Shown: positions 1 to 26,656, counted from the first letter of the stretch. The stretch is 64,000 nt of DNA from Candidatus Iainarchaeum sp. (GCA_043803765.1 JAZDJQ010000014.1:1382-65381); one strand, 5' to 3'. Numbers and translations: made by a program. Notes: generated from the sequence alone by a model not told the origin.

Positions 1-349
1 ATCCCATTGGGGCTACTATCGTTAGGCGTGGGATTATTTTTGGTACGAGCCGGGGAAACGGTTATTGTGCTGATCGGTTTATACTGTCTTCTCTATGCCA
101 TAACCGCCTTCCAAACTTTTCGCATGCTGAGTCCTCCTTTCCGTTCAAAAAACGTTCCAACACGCCCCACCATTACAAAAAAAAAGAAATCAAAAAAGTA
201 ATTCTTTTTCCGACACTCTTTTGTTAGAGAAGAATACTATTTAGCACATGGAAGATTCTCTTTTGGATAAAGGTTTTTACGAAGCAAAAGGGCCGCCGCG
301 TAACAATATTTTTCCCGGAGTTTTTTTTCTGGTAAGAAAAAAGAGTTGA

Positions 350-1891: not shown

Positions 1892-2177
1892 ATTGTCTGA
1901 TGCGACCGAACCGATGAAATTGTGATCTACGTTTGTTCCCGGGGAGTTGATATCAATAATCCCGCTCTTGCTGGAAATGTCTCCAAACAGAGCCCTTAGC
2001 GTTATTGTTTTCGATTTGGACGGAATTTTGGCAGGAACAAATTACACGTAATTTTGATGGCATTAAGCAACAGGGACGGCAATTGCCCAGTGTATTGGAT
2101 TTAATGAGGACGGGAATTAGGCAATAGAATAGTCATAATGCGTGATTTTATAAACTTTTAGGCATTATGAATAGTCT

Positions 2178-3434
2178 ATGAATGGCGTTCGAGATGTTTT
2201 AACCCTTCAGAAGATGGAATTGGAAAAACGGTTCCAAGAGCAGTATGTGGAACGGGACACCACACTCACAAAAGCCAAGGATAATTTAGTTCGCGTGATA
2301 ATAGGCCCGCGCCGTGCGGGAAAATCTTTTTTTACCGCCCATTGGCTGAAAAAAAATGCCAAATTTGGATACATTAATTTTGATGATGAAAAACTGGTCA
2401 CGGTGAAAGATTTCAACGAATTGCTTGCCATCACCGATACCCTGTATGACATTCCAGAAGTTCTCATGCTGGATGAAATTCAAAATTTGGACAAGTGGTA
2501 ATTGATTGCCAATCGATTACAGCGGGAGGGAAGAAAAATATTCATCACCGGTAGCAATTCAAATCTCTTGAGCAAAGAACTAGCGACTCATCTTACCGGA
2601 AGACACTTGCAGATAAGCATTTTTCCTTTTTCATTCAGCGAATATATTCAATTTCAAAACGAATCATTTACGGAAGTAAAAACAAAAGAAAAATTGATTG
2701 AATATGCCACGAAGGGGGGATATCCTGAACCCATCGTCAAAAATATGGATTACAAAGAATATTTATCCACCCTGCTTAATTCAATAATATATAAAGACAT
2801 CGTAAAAAGGCACAAGATACGAAAACCAAACGCCATCGAGGACATGGTCTTGTTTCTTCTTTCAAATGTGGGAAACGAATATTCCTATCAGCGTTTGGCA
2901 GAGTTAACCCAATCGAAAAGTTCCCATACGGTCCAGAAATATCTTGGTTATTTGGAAGAAGCGTTCGTTCTCTTCTCCCTGAAACGTTTTTCGTACAAAA
3001 CAAGAGAACAGATTACCTCTAACAAAAAAATTTATTCCATCGACAATGGATTTATTGGAGCAAAATCAACCAAGACGACGCAAGATCTCGGCAAGCTGTA
3101 TGAAAACATTGTTGCCATACACTTGAAAAAAGAAGAGATTGATGGAAAGATAAATGTTTATTATTGGAAAAGCCAGCAGCATGAAGAAGTGGATTTTGTC
3201 ATAAAAGAAAGATTGAAAATAAGTAAACTCATCCAAGTTTGCTATGATGCCACAAACCCAGATGCCAAGAAAAGGGAAATTCGTGCGTTGATAAAAGCCA
3301 AACAAGAACTCAAATGCAATGAATTGATTATTCTTACCCACGACTACGAAAACGAAGAGGAAGTAGAATGGTATGGTGAAAAAGCGAAAATTCGGTTTAC
3401 CCCATTATGGAAATGGCTGCTGGGAAAGCAATAA
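2178..3434 (+). pseudogene. COG1373-type AAA+ ATPase (Walker A plus a C-terminal DUF4143-like domain) interrupted by a single in-frame TAA at 2499-2501. It is a paralog of the intact gene at 10495-11775.
   Basis: ORFs 2178-2501 and 2502-3434 are in the same frame. GPRRAGKS is a Walker A motif. ...LDEIQNLDKW*LIANRLQREG aligns with LDEPQGKNGWNQFVNRLYENG of the intact copy. Confidence 0.6.
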
Positions 3435-3442
3435 CACTTTTA

Positions 3443-3456
3443 TGCCTCGGGGGAGG
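3443..3456. repeat. The 14-nt core atgcctcgggggag, identical to the 3' end plus 1-nt flank of tRNA-Met at 32135-32148. Putative att-core remnant.
   Basis: Exact match read directly. Lies immediately downstream of the ATPase pseudogene stop. Confidence 0.6.
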
Positions 3457-3563
3457 TCTTAACCGTCCAGTGCAACATGCTTACTGGTTCAAGCCGGTTG
3501 GATAATACCAATAATACCTACTCGATATTTATTCACTGCATCAAAAAGTGTCACAAGCCGCCA

Positions 3564-5006
3564 TTATTTAATGGACACTCCAGCTGACCAGCCCATAGTC
3601 CCAATAATATTTCGATCCTTATCCGGGCTCATTTCTGCAAGCTTTTGGGCATATTCGGCGAGCATCTTTTCAGCGCCTGAGCCAAGCCGAGTAAAGGTAT
3701 CAAGCCAATACCGCTGGAGAACTTGGTAAGGGATGTAATCTGATTCCTCCAAAAAGGGAAATTTTTCGATTAGTTTCCGATAAGCAGGCGATCCTGGAAT
3801 AATAAATACAATACTCGCAATCACTCTTTCCATGATATCAAGGTTGGCTTTCACAAAATCGACGTTTTCCTTGAGGGATTCTTCAGTTTCTCCGGCCAAT
3901 CCCAGAACAAATCCTGCTTGGATCAAAATGCCATATTTTCTCGCCAAATCAATAGCCTTCTGATGAATTCCCTTTGTTGTCCCCTTCATGTTCAATTTTT
4001 GGACATTGTCATTGGCCGAATCAAAGCCAATGTAGATAATGCGCGTGTTCAGTTTCTTCAGCGCAGCAAAAGAGCGCTCGTTGGCAAAGAGGCTTTGGAC
4101 GTAGAAAATCCACCCAAGGTCATATTCATCATACAATTTTCTCAGCGGTTCATAAGTGACCAGACGCTCTAACATTTCAATCTCAGGCGCAGCGTTATCC
4201 CCATAACATTTCAAAGTTACTTTGGAGCCTTTTGGAACGCTCCACTTTTCAAGATAATGTTTGATTTCATTCGTCACGGCTTCCGGACTTCGAATGGACA
4301 CCACATCCTTCAATCCACAGAATGAACAATAAGCAAATTCATCAGTTGGAATATTTTTCCCCAACTTCAATCGGTTATCCCGATAGCGGCAACCGAAATG
4401 GGTGAAAACCTGGAACATGTACGGTGAAGTAGCATCGATCCTTTCCTGAAAATTCTTCCAATATTCTGAAATGGAAGGAATAAGAATGGACAAATCCAGC
4501 GGCACACTTTCCTCCCAGACATATGGGGCATCTTCCTCTTTCATGTGGACAACGTTTCCGTTTTGATGAAAAGATAAATTGGGAATGCCAGAATAGTTTT
4601 GAGAGCCAATAAGTTGTTCGTAAAGATCGAGGAAAACTTTCTCGCCCTTACCCCGGATCATGAAATCGAAGATATCACCACGAAATGTTCCAATTTGCCG
4701 GTACATTTCGGTAACATAAGGGCCACCCAAAACAATTGTTTTCCCTTGATGCTTGAACCGTGATGCCAAGACAATAGCTTGGTGGTAGACCAGCGAGCTG
4801 GAAATGGAAATGCATACAACATCACCAGTCACCAGATTGGGGGATGCTCCCGCACTGAGATCAATAACTCTGGCGATATTTGGATATTTTTTGTTGAGTC
4901 GTGTCGCCAATGCGAGCAATCCAGTAGGATAGTAGATGGCTACGTTTGCTCCCAGACTGCCTATTTCAACGGGCACGGTAATGAAGTCGACTGTCCGATG
5001 ACCCAT
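3564..5006 (-). CDS. B12-binding-domain / radical SAM family protein.
   Basis: N-terminal Rossmann-like B12-binding region (VVCISISSS...GKTIVLGGPY). Cys cluster GCRYRDN...x20...YCSFCG. C-terminal TIM-barrel-like region. Confidence 0.5.
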   Translation of the reverse strand: MGHRTVDFITVPVEIGSLGANVAIYYPTGLLALATRLNKKYPNIARVIDLSAGASPNLVTGDVVCISISSSLVYHQAIVLASRFKHQGKTIVLGGPYVTEMYRQIGTFRGDIFDFMIRGKGEKVFLDLYEQLIGSQNYSGIPNLSFHQNGNVVHMKEEDAPYVWEESVPLDLSILIPSISEYWKNFQERIDATSPYMFQVFTHFGCRYRDNRLKLGKNIPTDEFAYCSFCGLKDVVSIRSPEAVTNEIKHYLEKWSVPKGSKVTLKCYGDNAAPEIEMLERLVTYEPLRKLYDEYDLGWIFYVQSLFANERSFAALKKLNTRIIYIGFDSANDNVQKLNMKGTTKGIHQKAIDLARKYGILIQAGFVLGLAGETEESLKENVDFVKANLDIMERVIASIVFIIPGSPAYRKLIEKFPFLEESDYIPYQVLQRYWLDTFTRLGSGAEKMLAEYAQKLAEMSPDKDRNIIGTMGWSAGVSIK

Positions 5007-5063
5007 TCAAGTTATGTATCACAACGAGGGTATTATATTCTTGCTGTAAATTATTTACGACAT

Positions 5064-5825
5064 ATGGGCCAAATCGAGAATGCATTAACCAAATATGGAC
5101 TATCCCAAAAGGAGGCAAGCATCTATGCTGCCTGCATTTCGTTGGGAGAGGCAACTGCAAATGAAATCGCCCAAAAGAGTCAAGTTCCAAGAACGTTGAC
5201 ATACGACATTCTCGAACGACTAATGGAAATGGGACTGATTTCCCATCAACTCCAAAATGGAGTCAAATCGTTTGCTGCAGCAGACCCGGACGAATTACTA
5301 CACATTCTGAAAGAAAAAGAAACGGCCATCAGAAAAGCAATGCCTGAATTAAAAGCAATCCAAAAACAAACTGGTTCACGAAGACCCAAAATAAGTCTCT
5401 ATGTTGGGAAAGACGGGATGAAAACGGTCATGAATAACATCTTACGTTCGAATACGAAGGAATTCCTGGCATATGGCAGTTCAAGGTCATCCTACGAATT
5501 GATTCCGGCATTCATGGAACGGTGGCACCAAGAACGAATCGAAAAAGGGGTGTTGATGCGGGCCATTTACAACGATACGAAACAATCCAGGCAGCGCATC
5601 CAAAAATACCAAAAGTCCCTTCGATTATCAGAGTACAGAGTATCCCCTATTACACTCGAATCACCGACAGCCACCCTTATTTATGGGGAAAACGTCATCC
5701 TTCAATCATGGACCCCTGAACCATTCGCTGTTCTCATTCAATCCAAAGAAATGGCCGAAAACCAACGAGAATACTTCAATCAATTATGGAAGGTCATTGG
5801 GAGTAGCTCAGCCAGTTATCTATGA
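5064..5825 (+). CDS. TrmB-family transcriptional regulator (N-terminal HTH). Divergent from the radical SAM gene.
   Basis: LSQKEASIYAACISLGEATANEIAQKSQVPRTLTYDILERLMEMGLI matches the TrmB HTH. An ATG at 5064 avoids overlap with the upstream gene. Confidence 0.6.
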   Translation: MGQIENALTKYGLSQKEASIYAACISLGEATANEIAQKSQVPRTLTYDILERLMEMGLISHQLQNGVKSFAAADPDELLHILKEKETAIRKAMPELKAIQKQTGSRRPKISLYVGKDGMKTVMNNILRSNTKEFLAYGSSRSSYELIPAFMERWHQERIEKGVLMRAIYNDTKQSRQRIQKYQKSLRLSEYRVSPITLESPTATLIYGENVILQSWTPEPFAVLIQSKEMAENQREYFNQLWKVIGSSSASYL

Positions 5826-5852
5826 CAGATAGGGATATTGAACTGAACGATA

Positions 5853-5905
5853 CAATGCCTCGGGGGCGAATAGAAGATAGGGGTAAACTGCCTTTTGTAA
5901 TGAAC
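5853..5905. repeat. tRNA-Met 3'-end core (caatgcctcggggg) followed by a roughly 45-nt conserved extension. Paralogous copy at 14672-14722.
   Basis: Alignment of 5853-5905 against 14672-14722: gcctcggggg..gaagatag.ggtaaactgcc.tttgtaa.gaacaata. Confidence 0.6.
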
Positions 5906-6027
5906 AATATGCAAATGGAAATACCCATAAGATTTCATATCAACAATCCGTATGCCTGCTGTGGATTCTGCGGGGATTGGATCAAACAAAAAAAAACTCG
6001 TTGCATGGGTAAGTTAGAGCAAGGCAT

Positions 6028-7317
6028 TCACTCATAACGTAAAGCCTCAATAGGTCTTAACTTAGAGGCGGTTCGTGCCGGGATGAGTCCTGCAATGACC
6101 CCGATAATGGTGGATAAGATAATGGCCATTAGAATCAACTCAATGGAAACATAGGTAGATGCTCCTCTCGCACCGGGCGTAGGAATGAAGCCCATTCCGG
6201 AAATGGCAAACGAAACAATCGTTCCTAAAATGACCCCAATAATCCCTCCCACGAATCCAAATAACCCTGACTCCATGACAAAAAGCAACAAAACTTCATT
6301 ATTGGTTGAACCCAATGCCTTGAGTATTCCTATTTCCTTTGTCTTTTCCAATACGGAAGTGAACATACTGTTAGCAACCCCCAGCGCTCCTACTACTAAT
6401 GATACTGCTGCTATCGCACCCAAGAAAAGAGTCAATGTTTCGGTTACCGAACCCACTTGTTCTTGAACGGCCTGCGAGGAAGTAACCGAAAAATCTTGGG
6501 TACGTTCAGTCACTTTCCGCGAAATTTGTAGGGAAGCCGTCAAGTCCTGCGTCGTCTGTTCCACTAATTCAGGGGCGGAAACCTTTGCTTGAATACTTGT
6601 GTACGTATCGCGGTTTACATCTTCCACTGTGTTCCACGCACTATTCAGGGACATGTAAATCGTGTTATCGCTTCCGCTTCCTCCAAATCCAGATCCTGAA
6701 GCAGAAAGAATTCCTACCACAGTGAAGGGCTTATCCTCCAATGTAATAATTCGGCCCAAGGTAATAGGTTGTTTGAATGTTTCATTCGCAATTCGATCTC
6801 CAATCACCACCCCGATTGAATCACTTGCTGTCAATAAACGTCCCGAAGCGAGAGAAACATTCGATGTCTGTGGCCACGTCGTGGGGTTAACCCCCTGCAC
6901 GCTCACATTGGATTTTTCTCCAACAAAAACGAGTTCTCCTCGGCCTGAAACAATTTCCGTGACCAATGTCACGTTGGGATTTGCGTTGATAATGATAGAG
7001 TCCTTTTTCGTTAAGGTTGGTTCCTCATCTGTTGTGCTGGTTGAGTTCGTGATAGTAATGGCACCCGACTCACCTCCTCCGGCTCGAAATCCTCCTCCGA
7101 ACCCTTGGGCACGACTAAAACCGGGAGAAATAGTAATGATGTCTGCACCAAAACCGGATAATTGTTGTTGCACATTCGCCTGTGCTCCCTCTCCAATTGA
7201 AATGATTGAAACCACTGCCGCCACTCCAATGATAATTCCCAATAGGGTAAGCCATGACCGTAGGCGGCGATGAAGAATACTGTTCAGAGATAAGGAAAAT
7301 GAATCCTTCAGCTTCAT
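6028..7317 (-). CDS. ABC transporter permease, MacB/FtsX type (N-terminal TM, large periplasmic domain, C-terminal FtsX 3-TM domain).
   Basis: MKLKDSFSLSLNSILHRRLRSWLTLLGIIIGVAAVVSIIS is a MacB-like N-terminus. C-terminal TM bundle. Confidence 0.8.
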   Translation of the reverse strand: MKLKDSFSLSLNSILHRRLRSWLTLLGIIIGVAAVVSIISIGEGAQANVQQQLSGFGADIITISPGFSRAQGFGGGFRAGGGESGAITITNSTSTTDEEPTLTKKDSIIINANPNVTLVTEIVSGRGELVFVGEKSNVSVQGVNPTTWPQTSNVSLASGRLLTASDSIGVVIGDRIANETFKQPITLGRIITLEDKPFTVVGILSASGSGFGGSGSDNTIYMSLNSAWNTVEDVNRDTYTSIQAKVSAPELVEQTTQDLTASLQISRKVTERTQDFSVTSSQAVQEQVGSVTETLTLFLGAIAAVSLVVGALGVANSMFTSVLEKTKEIGILKALGSTNNEVLLLFVMESGLFGFVGGIIGVILGTIVSFAISGMGFIPTPGARGASTYVSIELILMAIILSTIIGVIAGLIPARTASKLRPIEALRYE

Positions 7318-7322
7318 TCCAT

Positions 7323-8879
7323 TTACCTCTTTTCCTTTTTACTACTGCGATTCAGCAATGTCTTTGCTTTTTCCCTCCAATCATTGCGAAAAAACAACAC
7401 CAATCCTATAAGAGAAAGGATGCAGGATACTCCGATGGCTATCTCGTTTCGATTCAAAAGCAAGATAGAAATGAGAAAAACGACAACGATACCTGCCAAC
7501 ACTTTGAGCAACGAAGTCCATTCTCTTTTCGCTTTGAAATGATTGTATCCAATTCCTCCAATTAACACAACGGCGAGTAACCCCCAGGCAAGAAGCGGCG
7601 AAAGACCTGTCGACATCGCCCGATTCGTTTGTCCTATTCCACTATTCAAAGAATTGGCACTCAAACTAATAGTCTTAGTAACGGTTTGCCGCTCTCCTGT
7701 TGTGTCCGTGTAGGCAATTTCCAATTCAAGTGTGCGTGGGATGGGCGGGGCAAACATATTGGTGTCACCTCTACCGGTCGGACGACCTTGAAATCCACTG
7801 CCAAAGCCGTCCGTCCCAGAACCTTGCGGCAAAGTAGAGGTGTCCATTGTTCCGGTTCCAGATAACCCGCTCGCTGTTCCAAGTTGGAATGTTGCAATCG
7901 TAAAGTCTCCTTTATTCAGATTTCCCAATATGGAGATATTGCTTCCGCTCGATGAAACATTCAGCAACTTGGCAACCACTGCGCCTGCATTATTGGAGCC
8001 GATGTTGGCGATACTCACGGACAACTGGTTGCTTACCATTTCTCCACTTACTTCAAAATCGGTTTTTCCGCCAATGATGACTCCTATTTCGGAGGCTTGT
8101 TCTTGGTCCCCGTTGCTATCCGTAAAACTCACATTAATGGACAGGGGATAGATTCCTGTTGTAATATTGGGATCGGCGGCAACAGTGTACTGTAGGGTTG
8201 CCTTTTCTCCTGCGGGGATAATGGGAATGTAGCGTTTGTTATCCGTGCCTACTGGTAAAATAAGCGAGCTTTCTTCTGTCCACGAGAATGAAATATTGGA
8301 TACCGCGGTTCCCCCTACATTCGTAAGAGTAAACGTCACATTCGTTTGGTTCCCGGGATTGATGATGCGGGGTTCGAGTGTCACATCAATGTTTTTCTCG
8401 GCTCCGGACACTGGAATAATTATTTCGTGATTTTCGGTGACGGGAACTCCGTTTCGAATATACGAAAGGGTTAAGAGAGTGGGATAATGACTTGGAGGAG
8501 TATCCGCCTTTATGCGGAAAGTAAAAACCAGTGTTTTGGTTGCATCCGGTAAAATGGAAGAAGCACCATCCTCGATATCCATGGGATCGAATTGTTCTCC
8601 AATATCCAATAATCCATTCAAATCCTGAATGGTGATCGAAGCACCTTTATTGTGAACATCTACTGCCAGACTCACGACGTCACCTGCGTAAATGGTATTC
8701 GGTAGAAAAGTGGTTCCTTGTATTTCAGCCAAATACGCAAATTCACCAGAATAATCCCCTAATTGAGCATGAACGAGTGGAATGGATAATCCAATTCCCA
8801 AGAAGACGAACGCGAAAAATAACAGCGGCCCCCTTCGCATAATATTCCATTCAGTATTTTCATTTTTCCATTCCATCAT
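7323..8879 (-). CDS. Large extracellular or surface protein of the ABC operon (signal peptide, beta-rich repeats, C-terminal TMs).
   Basis: N-terminal signal/TM FFAFVFLGIGLSIPLVHAQ. C-terminal TM helices plus a basic tail. Gene order ATPase - surface protein - permease. Confidence 0.5.
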   Translation of the reverse strand: MMEWKNENTEWNIMRRGPLLFFAFVFLGIGLSIPLVHAQLGDYSGEFAYLAEIQGTTFLPNTIYAGDVVSLAVDVHNKGASITIQDLNGLLDIGEQFDPMDIEDGASSILPDATKTLVFTFRIKADTPPSHYPTLLTLSYIRNGVPVTENHEIIIPVSGAEKNIDVTLEPRIINPGNQTNVTFTLTNVGGTAVSNISFSWTEESSLILPVGTDNKRYIPIIPAGEKATLQYTVAADPNITTGIYPLSINVSFTDSNGDQEQASEIGVIIGGKTDFEVSGEMVSNQLSVSIANIGSNNAGAVVAKLLNVSSSGSNISILGNLNKGDFTIATFQLGTASGLSGTGTMDTSTLPQGSGTDGFGSGFQGRPTGRGDTNMFAPPIPRTLELEIAYTDTTGERQTVTKTISLSANSLNSGIGQTNRAMSTGLSPLLAWGLLAVVLIGGIGYNHFKAKREWTSLLKVLAGIVVVFLISILLLNRNEIAIGVSCILSLIGLVLFFRNDWREKAKTLLNRSSKKEKR

Positions 8880-9608
8880 TTATCCTCTCCTGAGTCGATT
8901 TTTTCCATCGTAACTAATTTTGCCATCCTTCATCTCAATGACGCGGTCCGCATACTTGGCAATATTTGGTTCATGCGTCACCAATACAATCGTCTTTCCC
9001 TGCTTGGAATGCAAGTGGTCTAAGATATCCATGATTTCGTAACTCGTCTTCGTGTCCAAATTTCCAGTAGGTTCATCCGCTAACACCATCGAAGGATTGG
9101 CTGAAAGTGCGCGGGCCACTGCTACCCGTTGCCGTTCTCCTCCAGACAGTTGAGCGGGAAAGTGACTGACACGATGGGAGAGTCCCACTTGGGAGAGTAA
9201 GTCAAGGACCGTTTTCTCAATCGTTTCTTCTTCCAATTCATGAATGCGCATGGGCAGGGCTACATTGTCAAAAACTGTCAACGTGGGATGAAGATTGAAG
9301 GTCTGAAACACAAACCCAATCGTTTTTCCACGCAAACGTGAGACGTGGGATTCATCAAGCGTAGAAAGTGGCTGGCCATCCAAGAGGACTTCCCCTTTGG
9401 TTGGAATATCCAATGCTCCGACTAAATTGAGAAGAGTGGATTTACCCGAGCCGGACGCACCCATTATTGCCACAAACTCCCCTTTTTGGATGGTTAAATT
9501 AACTCCTTTTACGGCAGGGACTTCCACTTGGTCCATTTGGTAGATTTTCCACGCATCCTGGATTTGCAGTAACGGCACCGATCTCTGAATCATGATTTGA
9601 ACACCCAT
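8880..9608 (-). CDS. ABC transporter ATP-binding protein (MacB/LolD-like).
   Basis: Walker A GASGSGKST, signature LSGGERQRVAVARAL, Walker B LADEPTGNLD. Confidence 0.9.
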   Translation of the reverse strand: MGVQIMIQRSVPLLQIQDAWKIYQMDQVEVPAVKGVNLTIQKGEFVAIMGASGSGKSTLLNLVGALDIPTKGEVLLDGQPLSTLDESHVSRLRGKTIGFVFQTFNLHPTLTVFDNVALPMRIHELEEETIEKTVLDLLSQVGLSHRVSHFPAQLSGGERQRVAVARALSANPSMVLADEPTGNLDTKTSYEIMDILDHLHSKQGKTIVLVTHEPNIAKYADRVIEMKDGKISYDGKNRLRRG

Positions 9609-9819
9609 TCAATCATTCAAAAAGCATTCCACTAATTAGACCCAAATCTCACACGGATTAAGGATACTCATTCTATTCTCCAAAATGCCTGTTTCAGCGT
9701 TGGATAAATAAATACGCACGGCAGGGCATCGCAGTATGGGAAAAATTCCTTGGGGGATCCAAGCAGCAAGATGGGACACCTCATTAAAGGAGGAAATATA
9801 AAACCTGAACGATGTCCTG

Positions 9820-10299
9820 TTGAACATGCCTACTCGGCGTTCCCGCAGCCATCGAATAACCCGCCTGTACTACGCCATCAGCCCACGCATAATTCATTTA
9901 GTGGTGGAAAAGGTGGTTTCCAAAAAAAGATTAGGGGAGATACGCGAACACGTACTTGGAAAAAGTATTGTGGAAAGAGAAGGCCGCATCCGATCCACCC
10001 CTGAAGGGCATGTGTGGGCCCTCATCTATAATGGAACAAGCAAATCATGGAGTGAGCTATCGGATGCGCAAAAGGAAAGACATCTGCATCATGTTCTGCA
10101 ATTCATTGGAAAAAATGACGTATTGGTCTCCCTTAGAAGAATACAAAATCTTATGGGAACTAATGAAATAGATGAATTGGGTAGAACTTCTAGACGATCC
10201 GAGCAATACGAAACATTGGTAGAAAGAATACGGCGCAAACAAAACGCGCACTCCATCATTGAAGGCATTATCCGAAAAGTGCAAGAAAAACAAAAATAG
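9820..10299 (+). CDS. Hypothetical protein.
   Basis: ORF only; no recognisable motif. Confidence 0.3.
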   Translation: MNMPTRRSRSHRITRLYYAISPRIIHLVVEKVVSKKRLGEIREHVLGKSIVEREGRIRSTPEGHVWALIYNGTSKSWSELSDAQKERHLHHVLQFIGKNDVLVSLRRIQNLMGTNEIDELGRTSRRSEQYETLVERIRRKQNAHSIIEGIIRKVQEKQK

Positions 10300-10317
10300 A
10301 CGAATGGGAATGGTTTA

Positions 10318-10344
10318 GTGCCTCTGGAATCGACTTGAACTCCC
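10318..10344. repeat. Degenerate tRNA-Met 3'-fragment-like repeat. It shares 26 nt exactly (tgcctctggaatcgacttgaactccc) with 11815-11840.
   Basis: Direct repeat flanking the ATPase gene. T-loop-like gagttcaagtc on the minus strand. Confidence 0.6.
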
Positions 10345-10494
10345 AACCAACGGGTTACGAACGGGTGTCTGCTATTTTTATTTTATTAGAAATTTCGACA
10401 GGGGACGTACTTTCAATATCATTGAAAATAAAATGGATTCTCTTTTCATTACTATTGAAAAGGTTTATATATGGATTTGGAGTAAGTAGAATGG

Positions 10495-11775
10495 ATGGAA
10501 CGCGTTGCACTAGAGTTTGTGGTAAAGGACCAATTTGAAAATCTCCAAAAAAAGGAGCGAGGGTTGCCGCGTGAAACATTGGGTCGAATAACTCCGTTAA
10601 TGCGGCATAAAAGTGCGGTAGTTGTAACAGGAGTTCGTCGCTGCGGGAAATCAACCCTTTTGTTCCAGGTAATGGACCGGTTTTTCTCAAAGGGATTTTT
10701 TTACTTGAACTTTGCCGATGAACGATTGAACGATTTTGAAACAAGGGATTTTCAAGTATTGCATGAGATACTGATTAAGGAATTCGGGGACCAAAAAACA
10801 TTTTTTTTGGACGAACCTCAAGGGAAAAACGGCTGGAACCAATTTGTTAACCGGCTCTATGAAAACGGATACAAGTTCTTTATTACGGGATCAAATGCGG
10901 AGCTATTGAGCAAGGAAATTTCCACTTATTTGACCGGCAGGCACATGGATTTTCCGCTTTTTCCTTTTTCATTTAAGGAGATGTTATCCTTCAGGAATGC
11001 CGGGAAAACGATTAGGTCAACCCAAGACAAGGTACAAATTGAAAGCGCGTTTGAAAAATACATGGAAAAAGGCGGTTTTCCCGAGGTTTGGACGCAGGAA
11101 AACACCGATATTCTGGTTAAAGTATATGATGATATTATCAACAAGGATATTTTGGTTCGGCACCAAGTAAAAGACCAAAAGACATTCAAGGATTTGGCAC
11201 TCTTCCTCATATCCAATTGCGGGAAAGAATTTTCATATAACGCATTAAAAAAACAATTCAATCTTGGAAGCCCTAACACGGCCAAAACGTTTGTCGGATA
11301 TCTAACGGATGCGTTCCTGCTTATCGAGATAAATCAATTCGATTTTTCCTTAAAAAAGCAGGGCTTTTTGCCCAAAAAAATATACGGAATCGACACAGGA
11401 TTAGTCAATAAGATGGGGTTTCGCCTTTCTGACGACAACGGAAGGTTGTTGGAAAATATCGTTCTTCTCGAGCTGCTTAGACAGAACCAAAAAGTATTTT
11501 ATTGGAAAGATGACAAACAACGAGAGGTCGACTTCCTAATCATAGAAAAAAATAAGGTAAAGGAAGCTATCCAAGTTTCTTTTGAATTATCCGATGCTAA
11601 AACGAAAGATAGGGAAATAACCGGGCTAATCAGTGCGATGAAAAAATTCAATCTACAAACGGGAACGATTCTTACACGCCACACGGAAAAAAGCGAAAAG
11701 GCAGATAACAAAACCATCCATTTCATTCCGGTGTGGAAATGGCTAATCGAAAACGACCAATCCGCTGAACATTAA
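10495..11775 (+). CDS. COG1373-type AAA+ ATPase (DUF4143-like C-terminus), intact.
   Basis: Walker A GVRRCGKST; Walker B-like FFLDEPQ. Collinear with the pseudogene at 2178-3434. Confidence 0.75.
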   Translation: MERVALEFVVKDQFENLQKKERGLPRETLGRITPLMRHKSAVVVTGVRRCGKSTLLFQVMDRFFSKGFFYLNFADERLNDFETRDFQVLHEILIKEFGDQKTFFLDEPQGKNGWNQFVNRLYENGYKFFITGSNAELLSKEISTYLTGRHMDFPLFPFSFKEMLSFRNAGKTIRSTQDKVQIESAFEKYMEKGGFPEVWTQENTDILVKVYDDIINKDILVRHQVKDQKTFKDLALFLISNCGKEFSYNALKKQFNLGSPNTAKTFVGYLTDAFLLIEINQFDFSLKKQGFLPKKIYGIDTGLVNKMGFRLSDDNGRLLENIVLLELLRQNQKVFYWKDDKQREVDFLIIEKNKVKEAIQVSFELSDAKTKDREITGLISAMKKFNLQTGTILTRHTEKSEKADNKTIHFIPVWKWLIENDQSAEH

Positions 11776-11812
11776 TCAACTACAACAATGAATGTTGAAC
11801 TGGATGGGACAA

Positions 11813-11864
11813 TATGCCTCTGGAATCGACTTGAACTCCCTACCTCTTGGTTATGAATCCGGCG
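11813..11864 (-). repeat. Degenerate partial copy (pseudo-tRNA) of the 3' roughly 50 nt of tRNA-Met(CAU) on the same strand. Putative attL of the integrated element.
   Basis: Minus strand reads GCCGGATTCATAACC..GGGAGTTCAAGTC....CC.GAGGCA against the tRNA GCCGGATTCATAACCCGGAGGCCGGGAGTTCAAGTCTCCCCCGAGGCA, about 75% identical. The T-stem is no longer complementary. Confidence 0.55.
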
Positions 11865-11882
11865 TGATATTTGCCAGCCTCA

Positions 11883-12278
11883 TCACTTTGCTCCCATGTT
11901 GTTCCCAACGTGCGTGTTTTTCTTTCGGGTTAGACGCTTGAACTTTTTGTTCAATGCTTCGATATCCCTCAAAATCATGCGCTTTAGAACAGTCCATTCG
12001 TACACATTAAGCGTTTTCCCGGAGTATTTGTGGTAGTATTTCCGGGAAAGCGTTTCCGGCGCATCCTCCATCTGCATGAGCTTCCCTTTCCAGAAAACTA
12101 GGAGATATATGTTTCCATTGTGTAGTTCCATGGGCGCGCTCCACCCGCGATAGTGTTTTTCCTCGCAATAGGGAGAAAGATCATCCATCTTTTGGAGATC
12201 CTTTTTGGTCATAGAATTTAATCGCGCGCCAAAATCATTGTGTCTTAGAAAAATAGTTGTGGTTCCCATTCGTTTCAC
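11883..12278 (-). CDS. Hypothetical protein.
   Basis: ORF only. Confidence 0.3.
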   Translation of the reverse strand: MKRMGTTTIFLRHNDFGARLNSMTKKDLQKMDDLSPYCEEKHYRGWSAPMELHNGNIYLLVFWKGKLMQMEDAPETLSRKYYHKYSGKTLNVYEWTVLKRMILRDIEALNKKFKRLTRKKNTHVGNNMGAK

Positions 12279-12303
12279 CTCATTCTCTTTTTTTTTGAAT
12301 TTT

Positions 12304-13008
12304 TCATTGCACCTTTTTTATTTTTTCGACAAGCTCCTTTTTCTTTTTGGTCCATTCGTTGTAGTTTATTCCAAGATAGCGTTTGGAATCAATGGGGTTG
12401 AATTGGGTTATTTCCGTTAGTAGCTCGCGCGGGTAATTCTTTTTCCGGTATTTTTCAAGCAGCTCCTGATATTTTTTTAGGTCAATAGGGGCATATACCA
12501 GTAATGTCAAAATATCAATCGTATCTTTTTGCCCCTTGATAGATTCCCTTCGGTCTATTTCCGCTCCCTGTTTTAGGATTAACAACATTTCGCTGCGAAT
12601 GGTTTTTATCCCTTCGATTTGGATTGTTTCTTTCAAGAGGTCTTCGATGGGGATGGCCAGAGTCGAATAATATGGAGTATAAATGTCGATATCGAATTCC
12701 GATAGTTTTATTTCATATTTTTTTAGTCGATCGTTTTTTTCCAACGAGTATTTTTTCTTTAGAATGGAAAGCGTTTCAAAGTCAACAAGGATGTCGATGT
12801 CTTTACTCTTGTGTTGTTTTGTCCATAACCATACACTCCACCCACCAATAACAGTCAGATTTATCTCCTTGGAAAGCTCCTGTAGCTTCTTCCAACTTTT
12901 TTCCGTCAGGCTTTCGTGCCAGAATTCAGTGGTTCGCATTATTCCAACCCCATTCGGCGCCGCAATGCCTGAATAAATTCCTTGGCATACCATTCTTTCA
13001 GATTCCAC
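12304..13008 (-). CDS. Nucleotidyltransferase-fold protein (minimal pol-beta-like NTase motif).
   Basis: VIGGWSVWLWTKQHKSKDIDILV fits hG[GS]-x13-DxD. A further acidic motif EFDIDIY follows. Confidence 0.4.
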   Translation of the reverse strand: MESERMVCQGIYSGIAAPNGVGIMRTTEFWHESLTEKSWKKLQELSKEINLTVIGGWSVWLWTKQHKSKDIDILVDFETLSILKKKYSLEKNDRLKKYEIKLSEFDIDIYTPYYSTLAIPIEDLLKETIQIEGIKTIRSEMLLILKQGAEIDRRESIKGQKDTIDILTLLVYAPIDLKKYQELLEKYRKKNYPRELLTEITQFNPIDSKRYLGINYNEWTKKKKELVEKIKKVQ

Positions 13009-13502
13009 AAATCCACAAACAATAGCTCATTAGACACAATTTTAATGGATTCGAGAATAGGAGGTGTTGCCAGAACAATAAGATTGGTCGGTCCATCATG
13101 AGGCGGAAATCTTTTTTTGATTTCAGAAAGGGTCTCCACATCGGCATACACGTATATTTCACTATAATCAGCCGGCACATCATCGAATCGAAATTTATAT
13201 CCACTAAAAGCAGTGAAAACAGCTTTCGCCGGCATCATTTTTTCGATATTGCGGACGCTGCCAGTGTGGGTTCGATAAATGATATCCCTGTCCAGATTCC
13301 GCATGTTTGCCCAATAGATGAGAGCCTTTTCCCGGTCTATTATGCGAAAACCGAATTTCCTTTTTTCGATAGCTCCCAACCGAGCAAGGGGACCCAACGC
13401 ATGATTCACCGTACTTAATGAAATTCCCCATTTTTGGGCTATTTCCAATTGGGTTTTAGCTCCCTGAAATAGAGAATAGAACACCCATTCGGATTTCTTC
13501 AT
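12939..13502 (-). CDS. Winged-helix DNA-binding protein, overlapping or partnering the NTase gene.
   Basis: N-terminal wHTH (TQLEIAQKWGISLSTVNHALGPLARLGAIEKRK). 70-nt overlap with the downstream NTase ORF. Confidence 0.4.
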   Translation of the reverse strand: MKKSEWVFYSLFQGAKTQLEIAQKWGISLSTVNHALGPLARLGAIEKRKFGFRIIDREKALIYWANMRNLDRDIIYRTHTGSVRNIEKMMPAKAVFTAFSGYKFRFDDVPADYSEIYVYADVETLSEIKKRFPPHDGPTNLIVLATPPILESIKIVSNELLFVDLWNLKEWYAKEFIQALRRRMGLE

Positions 13503-13933
13503 AGTAATAATATCCCATAAGTGTTTATATTGCTTTCGAATATCGTCGAAATAACTCCACTATACACAATGGGGATAGGACCCCAATTAAGCAGCCGGTT
13601 GGTAGCCGTACTTGTCCATGTGTAGGTGTCGAGCATAGGACACCATAATTTGGATAGGACCAACTCGATGGATTTCTTTTTTCGGGAGTCGGTTTCATTA
13701 TCATGCAAATCTTGGAGGACAATATACAAATCCACGTACATGGAACCATCAAAACGACGACCCATCGGTCGCAGGTTTCCAAAAGTGTTTACCGCGGCAA
13801 ACCTCACTTTTCCGCTTTTGTCTACAATATTTTTGAAGAAAACATCCATGACTTCTCCGATTTTCTCGTCAAAAATGGCTGAAATGGAAATAAAGAAATA
13901 CGCGGATGAAAAATACGCAGCGGAGGGTAACAC
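13499..13933 (-). CDS. Hypothetical protein.
   Basis: ORF only. Confidence 0.25.
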   Translation of the reverse strand: MLPSAAYFSSAYFFISISAIFDEKIGEVMDVFFKNIVDKSGKVRFAAVNTFGNLRPMGRRFDGSMYVDLYIVLQDLHDNETDSRKKKSIELVLSKLWCPMLDTYTWTSTATNRLLNWGPIPIVYSGVISTIFESNINTYGILLL

Positions 13934-13960
13934 TTTATTCTAGGGTGATAGAATCCGGCG

Positions 13961-14390
13961 CTATGGCAGACTCTCGATTATTTCTTTTGTGGAATAGATT
14001 TTGATTTTTTCTTGCGTTCCCAAAAGTTTATCGTTTGTCCAAATGGGAGACTTTTCTTTTAAAGCGAGGGCTAGAAAATCAATGTCTTCCGACAGTTCCT
14101 TATGATGGGTTTTTTCGGTCGATTCGATTAAATTTTTCGCTGTTTTCAAAAAAGAAGAATATTCTTCCAGTGGAATGAACTCCACACACGGCCAAATCAA
14201 ATCGTGCTTTTTCAAACTCTTCAATGGTTATTTCCGTTTTGTGCAATATCTCTTTTTGATGATTGTTTATCTCCTCTAACGCATACTCAGGAGAAACGAA
14301 TTCAAAGTCCTGACTGGTTGACAGTGACTTGAAAACAGAATTAGACCAAAAACAGGTAATCAGAATATTGGTATCGACCACGAGCTTCAT
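13961..14390 (-). pseudogene. PIN-domain (VapC-like) toxin gene split by a frameshift.
   Basis: N-terminal MKLVVDTNILI (ORF 14100-14390). The C-terminal PIN motif DIDFLALALKEKSPIWTNDKLL lies in the overlapping ORF 13961-14224. Homopolymer runs occur in the overlap. Confidence 0.6.
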
Positions 14391-14432
14391 TCATATCAAG
14401 CCCTTTGCCTTCAAGGAATCTAATCGGCCCTT

Positions 14433-14597
14433 TCAGTCCATTCGTACCAATTTGACAGACCAGCCCGAAATCGCTTCTTCTTCATTCAGTTTTCCAATCA
14501 ACTGTTTCTTCCGCTCAAAAGAAAGAATAGTCAAAACCTTTTCTTCAATATCTGACAGTTTGGCTTGAATCTGCTTGAGAGTAACCGCTTCGCTCAT
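14433..14597 (-). CDS. Putative antitoxin (54 aa) immediately upstream of the PIN gene. Below the ORF-track cutoff.
   Basis: My own translation of the minus strand gives MSEAVTLKQIQAKLSDIEEKVLTILSFERKKQLIGKLNEEEAISGWSVKLVRMD. It ends 40 nt before the PIN start. Confidence 0.35.
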   Translation of the reverse strand: MSEAVTLKQIQAKLSDIEEKVLTILSFERKKQLIGKLNEEEAISGWSVKLVRMD

Positions 14598-14671
14598 ACA
14601 ACAAAATCATTCCTTAGACTATAAAAACACGCTTTAACCAAAACACCAAAATGCACTTTATTCCTGGACAA

Positions 14672-14722
14672 TATGCCTCGGGGGAGGGTGGAAGATAGCG
14701 GTAAACTGCCATTTGTAAGGAA
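14672..14722. repeat. tRNA-Met 3'-end core (atgcctcgggggag) plus a conserved extension. Paralog of 5853-5905.
   Basis: Exact 14-nt core, then roughly 45 nt that is about 85% identical to the 5.9-kb copy. Confidence 0.6.
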
Positions 14723-14822
14723 CAATACCGAACAGTATGTAGGAGTAAATAAAGGTTTCCGAGCCTGCGAGGGGGACATCACCATTTTGGAAAGCAAATC
14801 GATAGTTATTTTTTCAGATTGA

Positions 14823-15221
14823 TCATATTTTCTTTTTTGCTCCAACTTGCATCAACCGCTTTTGAATGTCCGTAAAAAGATTGTCTATTTTTTCGATTTC
14901 TTTGGCATCAAATGTGTATCCTACACCTTTGTAAACAAAAATTTGTGGATTTGTCCCAATAACAGGATTGCCGTGCTTTGTGATATTTGCCACATGGTTT
15001 AAGGAGCCAAGATCTTTATCCAATTGGACTAAATCGACTTCAGTTCCGATCTTTTCGGCCAATTTTAAAAATCGTTTAAAACGATTTAGTGTTGAACCAG
15101 TTTGTGATACCTGATGTTGATGTAAAACACTATTGATAATTATTTCCGAGCTGTTGATCATCGTGGTCACACGGCCAATAAACTGTTGTGCATCAAATAT
15201 TTGACGCTCAAATTCTTCCAT
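14823..15221 (-). CDS. Hypothetical protein.
   Basis: ORF only. Confidence 0.3.
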   Translation of the reverse strand: MEEFERQIFDAQQFIGRVTTMINSSEIIINSVLHQHQVSQTGSTLNRFKRFLKLAEKIGTEVDLVQLDKDLGSLNHVANITKHGNPVIGTNPQIFVYKGVGYTFDAKEIEKIDNLFTDIQKRLMQVGAKKKI

Positions 15222-15232
15222 TCAAACACCGC

Positions 15233-16525
15233 CTATCGCGAATCAGGATTTTCACGCAGATTAATTATCCAGTAAAACCCTGCTCCAATTATTAAAAATA
15301 AAAATAAAATCTGAAGATAGCCCCAGTCACTTGTTTGATCCCAATAAGAGTTGTAAAACACGGTTCCTTTGAAGGCCTTATCCTTGGCTGATGCATAATG
15401 TCCTGCTTTGTATTCAGATTCGCTTCCACTATTGTATAAAACGTAGCCGAGCCAGCTAACTATTTTCAGAGGATTTCCTTTGGACATGTTCTTTTCACGC
15501 AAATCGTTTTCTAAACGCATTTGGGTGTCGGCTGGTCGTTGCAAATCAGCCAAGGCCGAACGATACTTGTCATTTGCCAATTTGCTTTCCGATATTACAT
15601 TTTGAGTGGCGAGTACACTCGGCTCTATGTCCTTTTTGAAATTGTAACCGATGCAATACTGTTCACTGGTTCCAAGATTCCCAATCGCCTCTACCGGCTC
15701 GGAAAAATCAATCTCATCTGATTGAGTTAAAATCCAGAGCGCGAAGTTCGTTTGATCGATGCGTGAGACTGTTTCGCTCGAGTAGTTTCGATTTTTCGCG
15801 TCGTAAAACGGTTGCCGGATTTCATTTGACAGGTTGAACATCGACAAGTCAACCTTGTCCGTGAGGGTACATGAAAGATCGCGTGTTAGCTGTAGGAAAA
15901 TGAAATATTCTGATCCTTGAATGGCCACTACCTTTTTTGAAAAGCGAATCCATTCTCTGCCGGCACGCTCGACAATTTCCCATCCATTTTGTTGCGCCTT
16001 TTCAGCAAATACATCAAAAACTTCTTCGGGAACGGTGGCTGAAATATTCCAAACGTTCGAGTCCACGAAGCTTACGATTTTTCCCGTAAAATTACAAATG
16101 TCGTTGGCCCCAGAAGCCCATTTCTTACACTGAATAGTGTTATCATATGTGGAAAAGGGGAGCTGGTAAATGCTGTTGTAATGGTAGATTGCTTCGAAAA
16201 CCGTTTGCGACTCATTTTCGTTCGTCACGAAACGACATTGGCCACTTTCATTTTTTACGAGGGCTGTCCAATTGGAATCGAACGTCAAGAGGAAGTAACT
16301 TTTTTCATCAAATTCGAGATTCTGGTATTTGAAATCGGGGTTAAACGACCCGTATTCGGGGGCAAAATGATTTGCGTCACAGTATTGAATGTACGCGTAG
16401 TTCGTTTTCGGCTCAATGATATTTCTATCGCCAAGTCCCTTAGCGGCAAACATGAAAAGCCAGCTCCCAACAACCACTACAAGGATGATTGCCACGACCC
16501 ATGCATCCACTTTAGAACCAGACAT
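15233..16525 (-). CDS. Membrane-anchored extracellular protein (TM helices at both ends).
   Basis: N-terminal AWVVAIILVVVVGSWLFMF; C-terminal ILFLFLIIGAGFYWIINL. Confidence 0.4.
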   Translation of the reverse strand: MSGSKVDAWVVAIILVVVVGSWLFMFAAKGLGDRNIIEPKTNYAYIQYCDANHFAPEYGSFNPDFKYQNLEFDEKSYFLLTFDSNWTALVKNESGQCRFVTNENESQTVFEAIYHYNSIYQLPFSTYDNTIQCKKWASGANDICNFTGKIVSFVDSNVWNISATVPEEVFDVFAEKAQQNGWEIVERAGREWIRFSKKVVAIQGSEYFIFLQLTRDLSCTLTDKVDLSMFNLSNEIRQPFYDAKNRNYSSETVSRIDQTNFALWILTQSDEIDFSEPVEAIGNLGTSEQYCIGYNFKKDIEPSVLATQNVISESKLANDKYRSALADLQRPADTQMRLENDLREKNMSKGNPLKIVSWLGYVLYNSGSESEYKAGHYASAKDKAFKGTVFYNSYWDQTSDWGYLQILFLFLIIGAGFYWIINLRENPDSR

Positions 16526-16580
16526 TAAATAGCAAAATATTGATTAACACCTTTTCAACCTTTCGGAGTTTATCATTAGA

Positions 16581-17276
16581 ATGGACCCCCAAATCAAAGA
16601 TGTTCTCACGCTTCTCGACGAAGCGGCCCATAAACGATGGTCGATTCGAGAAGAGCAGTTCAAGATGTATAAAATTGATACAACCGCAGTCGCCCAAGCC
16701 CAACAAATGGGTTTTATTCATTGGACCGGCGCAAACTATATTCTCACCGCAACAGGTCACGAAAAATTGTTACAATACGAGTCAGTCGATTCTCTACGAG
16801 AGATCCGAAAACACCTCCGAGTGGATAAAAAAGGCGTCATTTTTGATAGCAACGCGTACGATAAAATTCTAGAAGGAGCTTTGACAAAGAGTGATATCGA
16901 ATTGAGCCGACACAAAGGATTCGATTATTATATCACACACATCCAGGCAGACGAGGTTGTGCGTTGCCCGGAAGTCGACAGACGCCAGCGATTAACCCTT
17001 GCAATGCTCACGCTAAAGCCAATTGTTATCCCTACCGATTCAACGGTAGCAGGAGTATCACGGGTGGGATTTTCACGGTTAAGTGATGGACAAGACATGG
17101 AAAGCATTCGTAATGGCAGTCAAAGGCATACGAATGACGCATTGATAGGAGAAACTGCAATAAAAAATAAATTAATTCTTGTAACAGAGGACGATAGGCT
17201 TCGAACCAAAGTAAAAGATGCGAAGGGTATCGCAATGACTATCGCTGAATTCAAAAATGAAATCGAAAAAGAATAA
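16581..17276 (+). CDS. PIN-domain protein with an N-terminal extension of about 80 aa.
   Basis: GVIFDSNAY (first Asp motif) and the C-terminal DALIGETAIKNKLILVTEDD (PIN C-terminal motifs). Confidence 0.55.
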   Translation: MDPQIKDVLTLLDEAAHKRWSIREEQFKMYKIDTTAVAQAQQMGFIHWTGANYILTATGHEKLLQYESVDSLREIRKHLRVDKKGVIFDSNAYDKILEGALTKSDIELSRHKGFDYYITHIQADEVVRCPEVDRRQRLTLAMLTLKPIVIPTDSTVAGVSRVGFSRLSDGQDMESIRNGSQRHTNDALIGETAIKNKLILVTEDDRLRTKVKDAKGIAMTIAEFKNEIEKE

Positions 17277-17809: not shown

Positions 17810-17827
17810 TCATTCTATCTCTAAAAA

Positions 17828-18831: not shown

Positions 18832-18847
18832 ATTTTCGCTCCATCGA

Positions 18848-19453: not shown

Positions 19454-19466
19454 TTTTTGCCTCGTT

Positions 19467-20192: not shown

Positions 20193-20262
20193 AGGGTACT
20201 CATAGCGAGGATATTTAATAAGTCACATGATTACTCGAATTGTCAAACCACAAATAGTGCAC

Positions 20263-26638: not shown

Positions 26639-26656
26639 TGTCTGGAATCCATTTTT

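Follow-up and report, generated by a model that had tools for sequence, protein, structure and literature searches.

The tRNA-Met locus and its integrase

The DNA analysed in the current work (the window) is a stretch of 64 kb from a Candidatus Diapherotrites (DPANN) MAG, which carries a tRNA-Met gene, an integrase gene directly beside it, and further copies of the tRNA 3' end dispersed between cargo genes. The features are listed below in the order of their coordinates.

2178-3434, plus strand: COG1373 pseudogene with an in-frame TAA at 2499-2501, flanking the outermost core
3442-3455 (core) and 3456-3533 (arm), plus strand: outermost core with a second-type right-hand arm that matches contig L002
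3564-5825, both strands: segment cargo, with a B12-binding radical SAM enzyme on the minus strand (3564-5006) and the ORF of a TrmB-family regulator on the plus strand (4779-5825)
5855-5868 (core) and 5869-5909 (shared arm), plus strand: core with one mismatch and right-hand arm
6028-9608, minus strand: ABC transporter cassette (MacB/FtsX permease, 518-aa CARDB protein, ABC ATPase)
10319-10365, plus strand: second degenerate tRNA-like 3' half, with the exact 26-mer of the 11815 copy (repeat family D2)
10495-11775, plus strand: COG1373-type ATPase (AAA_14 + DUF4143), between the two variant tRNA halves
11815-11864, plus strand: degenerate tRNA-Met 3' half of about 50 nt, reaching through the anticodon loop, with a variant 26-nt core (families D1 and D2)
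14673-14686 (core) and 14687-14727 (shared arm), plus strand: exact core with right-hand arm (family D4), at the distal end of the integrase-bearing 17.4-kb unit
20826-25775, plus strand: type III restriction-modification cargo (Mod 20826-22874, Res 22875-25775; PF01555, PF04851, PF00271)
27545-30784, both strands: conserved element core module (ORF506, 27545-29065, minus; ORF150, 29052-29504, minus; ORF414, 29540-30784, plus)
30786-32075, minus strand: tyrosine integrase of 429 aa, XerA-like, with a C-terminal Cys4 ribbon (PF00589, E 8.7e-17)
32076-32135, minus strand: integrase-side att arm (P_L), separating the core from the integrase start codon
32136-32149, plus strand: attL core, made up of the final 13 nt of the tRNA and 1 further nt
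32137-32210, minus strand: tRNA-Met(CAT), the integration target (ARAGORN; Rfam tRNA model, 69 bits), with its 3' end at 32137

The tRNA-Met gene is identical to that of a distant relative (L001). [quoted passage not shown] Its catalytic set (R188, K214, H284, R287, W309 and Y319) is invariant in an alignment with 12 homologues, and the protein matches XerA in the PDB (4.6e-11). A split integrase of the SSV type was rejected, as the ORF is intact and the core lies outside it. The P_L arm, which contains a CCCCG..CGGGG hairpin and a GCAGTAAAGTGC box, is 97% identical to its counterpart in L002, and its conserved blocks recur in three loci (L003, L004 and L014) that display the same tRNA-then-integrase layout, with tRNA-Gly(CCC) as target; this layout and a conserved arm, again at tRNA-Gly(CCC), accompany integrase relatives of 70-72% identity. 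The search yielded 531 integrase homologues, a tRNA being located directly upstream in 26 of 80 metagenome loci; the closest named matches are the integrases of Archaeoglobi pleomorphic viruses (34-38% identity).

Neither a second copy nor fragments of the integrase were retrieved by tblastn, which matched 30786-32075 only within the window, and Pfam scans of the ORFs detected no integrase in 3456-14672. Units that are flanked by att sites are therefore present without an integrase.

Copies of the tRNA-Met 3' end

Within the 64-kb window the 14-mer ATGCCTCGGGGGAG has three exact matches, at 3442-3455, 14673-14686 and 32136-32149; a fourth, at 5855-5868, differs at one position (GGGGGCG; 13/14). 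These copies had been reported in the earlier note, with three positions (3443, 14672 and 32135) each off by one, and the string had correctly been recognized as the tRNA-Met 3' end (last 13 nt plus 1), the strand of the tRNA having been misassigned. Because the gene lies on the minus strand, the 13 nt that end the tRNA (CTCCCCCGAGGCA) appear on the plus strand in reverse complement, and together with one base of the flank they give ATGCCTCGGGGGAG. All four copies are on the plus strand, on the 3' side of the tRNA, so that two or more internal att copies, all directly oriented, split the island between 3442 and 32136; neither core (14-mer or 26-nt variant) was found in 32150-64000. That the recurrence exceeds chance, as previously claimed, was borne out against dinucleotide-preserving shuffles (n = 100, up to 2 mismatches allowed), for which a mean of 0.23 copies is expected and none of which reaches 4.

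The left flank ACAAT precedes the copies at 5855, 11815 and 14673 and none of the others, and a position directly 3' of a plus-strand gene, said to apply to every copy, was confirmed for four of the six (3442, 5855, 10319 and 11815), whereas minus-strand genes start to the left of 14673 and 32136. The right-hand arms of the internal cores are clear: the copies at 5855 and 14673 have a further 42-nt arm in common (z = 21.6, arm versus arm), although their neighbouring genes are unrelated. An Rfam scan of 1-38 kb returned tRNAs only, and the shared arm is therefore not a known RNA. The left-hand arms have short common boxes only, with TAAAGTGC in the left flank of 14673 at the same 13-nt offset as at attL, and CAGTTCAA shared by the left flanks of 5855 and 11815. 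In local alignment these boxes are not significant. Beyond short boxes the left flanks of the copies have no significant similarity to one another, and those of the internal cores have none to the integrase-side arm beyond boxes of 7-11 nt, which counts against an array of integrated elements.

The copies at 10319 and 11815 (the former placed at 10318 by the earlier note) are real, but they are not diverged 14-mers as had been supposed: they are longer, tRNA-Met-like 3' halves of 45-50 nt with another core, the exact 26-mer TGCCTCTGGAATCGACTTGAACTCCC being common to both. The 11815 half compares with the tRNA at z = 18, and its stems, as judged from sequence, no longer pair. These copies represent a different, longer att type which brackets a single COG1373 gene. 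That COG1373 genes generally travel with tRNA fragments was rejected, since the homologues in L005 and L006 are without flanking tRNA fragments. In the genome collection the 49-nt tRNA half was found in L001 only, on a contig ending at the tRNA; a metagenome scan with the 49-mer gave no matches, and neither did searches of the viral collection with the 42-nt arm, the 26-mer, the tRNA half, the integrase and ORF506.

Units and their cargo

Read as boundaries, the 14-mer copies would define three units (14687-32135, 5869-14672 and 3456-5854), and every island segment is a tetranucleotide outlier relative to 32.2-64 kb (z 3.3-7.6). The tRNA-proximal unit of 17.4 kb appears to be an element that is still intact, in which the integrase is accompanied by a replication-type ATPase and by type III restriction-modification genes; the earlier description of the whole interval as element remnants would not apply to this part of it. 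Its core module is 85% identical at the nucleotide level to that of the L003 element at tRNA-Gly. ORF506 specifies a P-loop protein of the replication-helicase type with Walker A (GDFSTGKT) and Walker B (VIIEEAD) motifs, and some of its 6417 homologues are fused to AEP, Prim-Pol, PriL or Gins51_C domains. For ORF414, ORF150, ORF430 and the small ORFs, no function was obtained from PHROGs, NCBIfam and PDB sequence searches.

The middle unit (8.8 kb), which is without an integrase, contains the ABC transporter, the COG1373 gene, small ORFs and a decayed PIN toxin gene, while the outer unit (2.4 kb) carries the radical SAM enzyme and the TrmB-family regulator, whose true start is probably near 5080. 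Pseudogenes occur in or next to these distal units, and the COG1373 pseudogene at 2178-3434 possibly belongs to the chromosomal flank. An integron-like cassette array was rejected, as the segments are multi-gene, of mixed orientation and equipped with their own regulators. A search of the genome collection for RpiA returned nothing.

The interval as a probable array of integrated elements

Taken together, it is probable that 3456-32135 is an array of integrated mobile-element units behind the tRNA-Met 3' end, stacked by the XerA-like integrase. In the proposed mechanism the integrase would act on a circular element and recombine its 14-nt core with the identical tRNA end (last 13 nt, plus 1), which would rebuild the tRNA and leave a direct core copy at the far end of the insert; later arrivals would reuse either the tRNA core or the resident scar, so that units become stacked head to tail. 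The 1.5-kb COG1373 cassette in the middle unit may be the trace of an older or foreign event, in which an integrase would have crossed over nearer to the anticodon loop.

Accretion at the tRNA-Met att site was the central idea of the earlier note, and it is retained here on account of the abutting integrase, the attP-type junction of L002, the 42-nt arm, the 11-14-nt cores of the same family and the L010 insertion (see below); its composition of the array is revised, with 10319 and 11815 assigned to the other att type around one gene. The same-family cores are those of L020 and L064, where tRNA-Thr 3'-end repeats of 14 and 11 nt, respectively, bound elements of approximately 6 kb with conserved arms on both sides, a geometry equal to that of the window array. 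Among the 80 related loci, most of which are too short to show a multi-core array, none was seen. Shown directly are the repeats, the integrase, the conserved arms, the attP-type junction of L002 and a hotspot at tRNA-Met in relatives. Any succession of events is inferred; the distal units would have lost their integrases, and the remaining integrase might still excise units as circles of 17.4, 26.3 or 28.7 kb. With one integrase and no fragments, the array requires the assumption of precise integrase loss beside retained cores, which speaks against it.

The principal alternative is a single integration event by one composite element of 28.7 kb (3456-32135), the internal cores and tRNA halves of which would be relics of accretion or nested insertion in other hosts or in an episomal state, so that the array was not built in this chromosome. 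The 3.2-kb linear contig L002, for which no terminal overlap (circularity) was found, bears directly on this, as here the integrase-side arm is joined through the 14-mer to the arm found to the right of 3442 (3442-3533 versus L002 734-824; 87% identical overall and 98% over the first 51 nt). Such an attP-type junction would make the outermost ends a matched attP, and it also fits a composite element that arm types are mixed between units and that the window has a single integrase. The junction can equally be read as one between two tandem elements, which would look like attP, and L002 shares only about 95 nt of the 3442 arm before continuing into different genes (NUDIX); the arm is thus modular, and this sharing is no proof of a 28.7-kb unit. 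Since the units moreover differ in composition, the composite element is regarded as possible but unlikely.

It may also be asked whether only 14687-32135 is mobile, in which case the DNA to its left would be the old tRNA-Met neighbourhood and the distal cores would be products of rearrangement, or of integrase recombination that was abortive or secondary. The copy at 14673 would by itself suffice as attR for the integrase-bearing unit, and the relatives provide a further argument, given that an ABC cluster adjoins tRNA-Met in L010. The cassette of the window is 68-70% identical at the nucleotide level to this cluster, a divergence equal to that of core genes, and it is inverted relative to the tRNA; the cluster could therefore be old local DNA and not a recent arrival. 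Against this, the L010 cluster lies inside an insertion of 5.8 kb, defined by comparison with L009 (95-97% identical), that starts exactly where tRNA-Met ends, and both L009 and L007, the latter representing the empty state of the site, are without the cluster. It is for the ABC cluster alone, the one segment with informative relatives, that presence and absence could be traced in this way, and the L010 insertion has neither an integrase nor a distal core repeat, which counts against the array; no genome of the same species was found in which the site is empty or filled in part, the relatives being only 66-71% identical at the nucleotide level. In addition, L002 has the 3442 arm as an element arm, homology links the arm at 5855 to the element arm at 14673, and the distal segments are compositional outliers, making mobility of the 17.4 kb alone highly unlikely. 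In L012 the tRNA-Met site is occupied by a hydrogenase cluster. A correspondence between the HTH gene beside the L010 ABC cluster and ORF159 of the window was rejected, as the two do not match.

That the 14-mer recurs by chance, or belongs to a dispersed short repeat (MITE-like or regulatory) that has nothing to do with integration, is scarcely credible: inspection covers 64 kb of the genome only and a tRNA-Thr 3' end is likewise repeated as a short string nearby, but the shuffles never reach the observed count, the copies are all on one strand and one side of the tRNA with none in the other 32 kb, and the core is the exact tRNA 3' end abutting an integrase.

Comparison with known integrative systems

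Retaining the array as the preferred reading, the structure is a known kind of genomic island in a little-studied lineage and involves no new mechanism. Archaeal arrays of tyrosine-recombinase elements that reuse one site have been described (PMC6563490, PMC8371274), and tandem arrays or accretion have precedents in the ssrA genomic islands of Dehalococcoides (PMC3146451) and in streptococcal ICE/CIME accretion, which includes integrase-less cis-mobilizable elements (PMC5704250). As in tandem tRNA/tmRNA arrays, the 3' end of one small-RNA gene is directly repeated several times over approximately 30 kb downstream, and the repeats divide DNA that is variable and rich in cargo; an integration module lies beside the repeat in some units and not in others, and the site appears to vary among relatives. 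In contrast, the Dehalococcoides islands employ a serine recombinase, whereas the enzyme here is a XerA-like tyrosine recombinase in a DPANN archaeon, and the array predicted here differs by a core of just 14 nt and two nested att types.

For SNJ2, one of the haloarchaeal pleolipoviruses, a 14-bp core at the tRNA-Met 3' end was shown experimentally (PMC5861418). The likeness comprises a core equal to the 3'-distal part of tRNA-Met and conserved P/P' arms; the SNJ2 tyrosine integrase excises a circular form, the counterpart of which is predicted here. The att site of SNJ2 lies about 48 bp downstream of the int 3' end, unlike the present one, 61 nt upstream of the int start, and in site layout, which the comparison covers, the locus thus departs from the SNJ2 type (core just 3' of int). 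The short-att elements of Thaumarchaeota (PMC6563490) likewise have tRNA-targeting tyrosine integrases and include cryptic elements with defence and other cargo, with att repeats of 8-26 bp (median 17), but they belong to another phylum, and at least three units occur here at one tRNA.

It is quite unlikely, though worth stating, that the integrase-less units are not dead and that the tRNA-adjacent integrase still excises and reshuffles them in trans, which would be why each of them keeps the 14-nt core and a conserved arm of about 42 nt. If true, a DPANN archaeon with a reduced genome would possess a modular, combinatorially exchangeable cargo platform, in which ICE/CIME accretion-mobilisation would find its archaeal equivalent, with att types that are nested.

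Gene gain and loss in DPANN, with their small, host-dependent genomes, are very sparsely documented, and the locus represents a tRNA-Met hotspot in Diapherotrites at which defence, transport and regulatory cargo is stacked. The XerA-like integrase family is widespread, and its core very short (14 nt). The att sequences and arms could guide searches for such islands in fragmented MAGs, where two relatives (L001 and L094) have contigs that break 41 and 21 nt, respectively, after this tRNA-Met.

Core repeats derived from tRNA-Met

The locus is best read as an array of three or more units with a 14-nt core at their boundaries, a string that recurs at the following positions together with the tRNA gene, the integrase gene and the units concerned:

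3442-3455, + strand: exact copy of ATGCCTCGGGGGAG
5855-5868, + strand: one-mismatch copy of ATGCCTCGGGGGAG
14673-14686, + strand: exact copy of ATGCCTCGGGGGAG
32136-32149, + strand: exact copy of ATGCCTCGGGGGAG
32137-32210, minus strand: tRNA-Met(CAT), identified by ARAGORN and Rfam
30786-32075, minus strand: tyrosine integrase of 429 aa (Phage_integrase match)
14687-32135: proximal unit, apparently intact
5869-14672: middle unit, without integrase, with a nested COG1373 cassette of a different, longer att type
3456-5854: distal unit, without integrase

The three exact copies are those of the 64-kb window. Since tRNA-Met is located on the minus strand, the + strand 14-mer represents the reverse complement of the final 13 nt of the tRNA plus one flanking base, these 13 nt being the T-stem 3' strand, the acceptor 3' strand and the discriminator A. 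The number of copies was compared with that in 100 dinucleotide-preserving shuffles, where 0.23 matches are expected by chance at up to two mismatches, and four or more were obtained in 0/100. The four copies reported in an earlier note are all present, three of them one position away from where they had been placed. Relaxing the pattern to TGCCTCKGGRR recovered only two extra matches in the 64 kb, at 10319 and 11815, and zero core copies to the right of tRNA-Met in this window.

Reading and aligning the flanks distinguished three kinds of copy. To the right of the 13-14-nt core, copies 5855 and 14673 carry a common 42-nt arm (GAAGATAGnGGTAAACTGCCnTTTGTAAnGAACAATA; local alignment z-score of 21.6) that has two matches only in the window and adjoins genes unrelated to each other. 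The 3442 core is followed by a different type of arm (3456-3533). The copies at 10319 and 11815, which the earlier note had listed as diverged cores, are indeed there, in the form of 45-50-nt tRNA-Met-like 3' halves with a 26-mer of their own. This exact common 26-mer has TGGAATC where the real tRNA has the six bases GGGGGA, and the 11815 copy extends to the anticodon stem-loop (89% identity with the real tRNA-Met over 37 nt). Because pairing is lost in their T and anticodon stems, these halves are not functional tRNAs; they enclose a single COG1373 ATPase gene (10495-11775).

Local alignment found no significant likeness among the left flanks of the copies. In the tRNA direction, the 14673 flank contains TAAAGTGC at a 13-nt offset from the core, the same as at the real tRNA, and CAGTTCAAyAT is common to the 5855 and 11815 flanks at a similar offset; these boxes are suggestive only.

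The integrase and its probable att sites

The integrase starts 61 nt from the tRNA-Met 3' end and has the same direction as the tRNA. Its catalytic residues are kept in an alignment with 12 homologues, and it matches XerA structures. The window contains no other integrase, nor any fragments of one. The family has hundreds of archaeal members, the closest relative being 91% identical (metagenome contig L002). Three others (L003, L004 and L014; 70-72% identical) keep both the tRNA-then-integrase order and the conserved tRNA-to-integrase arm, with tRNA-Gly(CCC) as the target. A tRNA is located directly upstream of the integrase in 26 of 80 metagenome loci; of the remaining loci, many begin no more than ~250 nt from the integrase, pointing to contig breaks at the tRNA. 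Both element ends are present in two loci, each with a repeat of its tRNA 3' end: L020 (6.3 kb at a tRNA-Thr, repeat of 14 nt) and L064 (repeat of 11 nt). Conserved arms on each side of the core are common to both. Because of these repeats and common arms, the usual att geometry of the family is a ~14-nt core at the extreme tRNA 3' end plus a conserved arm of ~40 nt.

In the L002 contig, positions 811-2116 align with window 32149-30844 at 86% identity and positions 734-824 with window 3533-3442 at 87% (98% within the first 51 nt), so that the right arm of the 3442 copy and the integrase-side arm meet through the same 14-mer. This junction looks like an attP site or a tandem junction of two elements and, because it joins the two arms, the 3442 copy is in all likelihood a genuine att site of the integrase's element family. 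Past ~95 nt of arm L002 carries other genes (NUDIX), and the 3442-type arm is therefore modular.

Formation and decay of the proposed array

The array would have arisen through successive rounds of site-specific recombination, with the tRNA-Met core or resident scars as the sites. The L002 junction is compatible both with a composite element that arrived whole and with stacking in this chromosome. As for the nested cassette, tRNA-targeting integrases have sublocation preferences, and the longer tRNA halves would fit integrases crossing over nearer the anticodon loop. The accretion island of element remnants proposed in the earlier note is retained as regards units delimited by att cores, and is to be amended for the proximal unit, which appears intact.

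With window 32.2-64 kb as reference, every segment within 3456-32136 is a tetranucleotide outlier (z 3.3-7.6), the left flank (1-3441) being borderline (z 2.5). The COG1373 gene (AAA_14 + DUF4143) adjoining the outermost core (2178-3434) has an in-frame TAA at 2499-2501, and the PIN_2 toxin of the middle unit is frameshifted. The latter belongs to a toxin-antitoxin remnant (13961-14598), in which a 54-aa antitoxin-like ORF precedes the split toxin. The 2178-3434 gene is 36% identical to its intact paralogue at 10495-11775, and each of the two terminates immediately before a repeat derived from tRNA-Met. At 350-1891, a 513-aa Ig/fn3-domain surface-protein ORF opens with TTG, without signal peptide or plausible N-terminus, possibly through truncation at the border of the COG1373 pseudogene.

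Arrays of tyrosine-recombinase elements reusing one site have been described in archaea (PMC6563490, PMC8371274), and thaumarchaeotal att sites are short (median 17 bp; PMC6563490). Pleolipovirus SNJ2 was shown experimentally to use a 14-bp core at the tRNA-Met 3' end, its att site being downstream of int, unlike the present locus (PMC5861418). In structure, the nearest parallel is found in the ssrA region of Dehalococcoides, where many islands lie in tandem between 20-bp repeats matching the ssrA 3' end; some of these islands lack integration modules and have been regarded as possibly cis-mobilizable (PMC3146451). Such a tandem-island structure is already known, the present locus adding a case from a DPANN lineage.

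The tRNA-Met locus in host relatives

Host relatives, collected via RpiA, are only 66-71% identical to the window in nucleotide sequence and keep the order PolB...HisRS, tRNA-Thr, RpiA, one gene, tRNA-Met. Gene content after tRNA-Met varies:

L007, L009: PPIase and MFS genes
L012: hydrogenase cluster
L010: 5.8-kb insertion with a MacB / 514-aa / ABC-ATPase cluster

Between L009 and L010, identity is 95-97% as far as the final base of tRNA-Met, after which ~5.8 kb absent from L009 follows in L010, homology resuming at the PPIase start codon. Because the site is empty in L007, the most distant of these three relatives, insertion in L010 is the parsimonious reading. The inserted cluster is 68-70% identical in nucleotide sequence to window 6044-9557, and the ABC-transporter segment of the window therefore appears to be a variable block linked to tRNA-Met in another lineage as well. 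The L010 block has the opposite orientation to its counterpart in the window, diverges from the window as much as core genes do, and contains neither integrase nor distal core repeat; it may have originated by homologous exchange of an entire island allele. The block (L010 12268-18079 versus L009 12268-12300) fits exactly between the tRNA-Met last base and the PPIase start codon, and holds the ABC transporter, an HTH protein and a Na+/H+ exchanger. Two further contigs, L001 and L094, stop 41 and 21 nt past tRNA-Met, as is typical of strain-variable sites.

Cargo of the proximal unit

Window 27856-29503, spanning ORF506 and ORF150, is 85% identical to L003 DNA. ORF506 (27545-29065) is a P-loop protein of a family with >6000 members, some of them fused to AEP, Prim-Pol, PriL or Gins51_C; judged from sequence, it is most likely the replication helicase of the element, and the family probably represents uncurated replication helicases of archaeal mobile elements. 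ORF506 has an N-terminal zinc ribbon and matches no Pfam family. Other genes specify a type III restriction-modification pair, Hjc-like nucleases, a wHTH protein and an RNase H-like exonuclease. Two overlapping ORFs at 17828-18903 each match PF10107, a family of Hjc-related endonucleases; they represent either neighbouring paralogues or a single gene broken by a frameshift. The cargo of the L020 element includes a TIR-SduA (Shedu-type) defence gene, and both this element and the proximal unit are small cargo and defence islands. L020 (1-6621) is inserted at tRNA-Thr(TGT), has an integrase of the same family and also carries an SPL-like radical SAM gene.

Repeats near tRNA-Thr

A further set of repeats is located beside the neighbouring tRNA-Thr:

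35622-35694: tRNA-Thr(GGT)
34407-34443, 35528-35564 and 35573-35609: 37-nt hairpin-like units holding copies of AAAAAGCCTCTGGC

AAAAAGCCTCTGGC consists of the last 10 nt of tRNA-Thr(GGT) and four A's; an exact copy is found 46 nt downstream, and copies with one mismatch at 35531 and 34410. These repeats could represent another small island of att scars or, alternatively, a terminator-like repeat. The hairpin-like units enclose a DUF7718 / 122-aa gene pair, which in L094 follows tRNA-Thr without the repeats.
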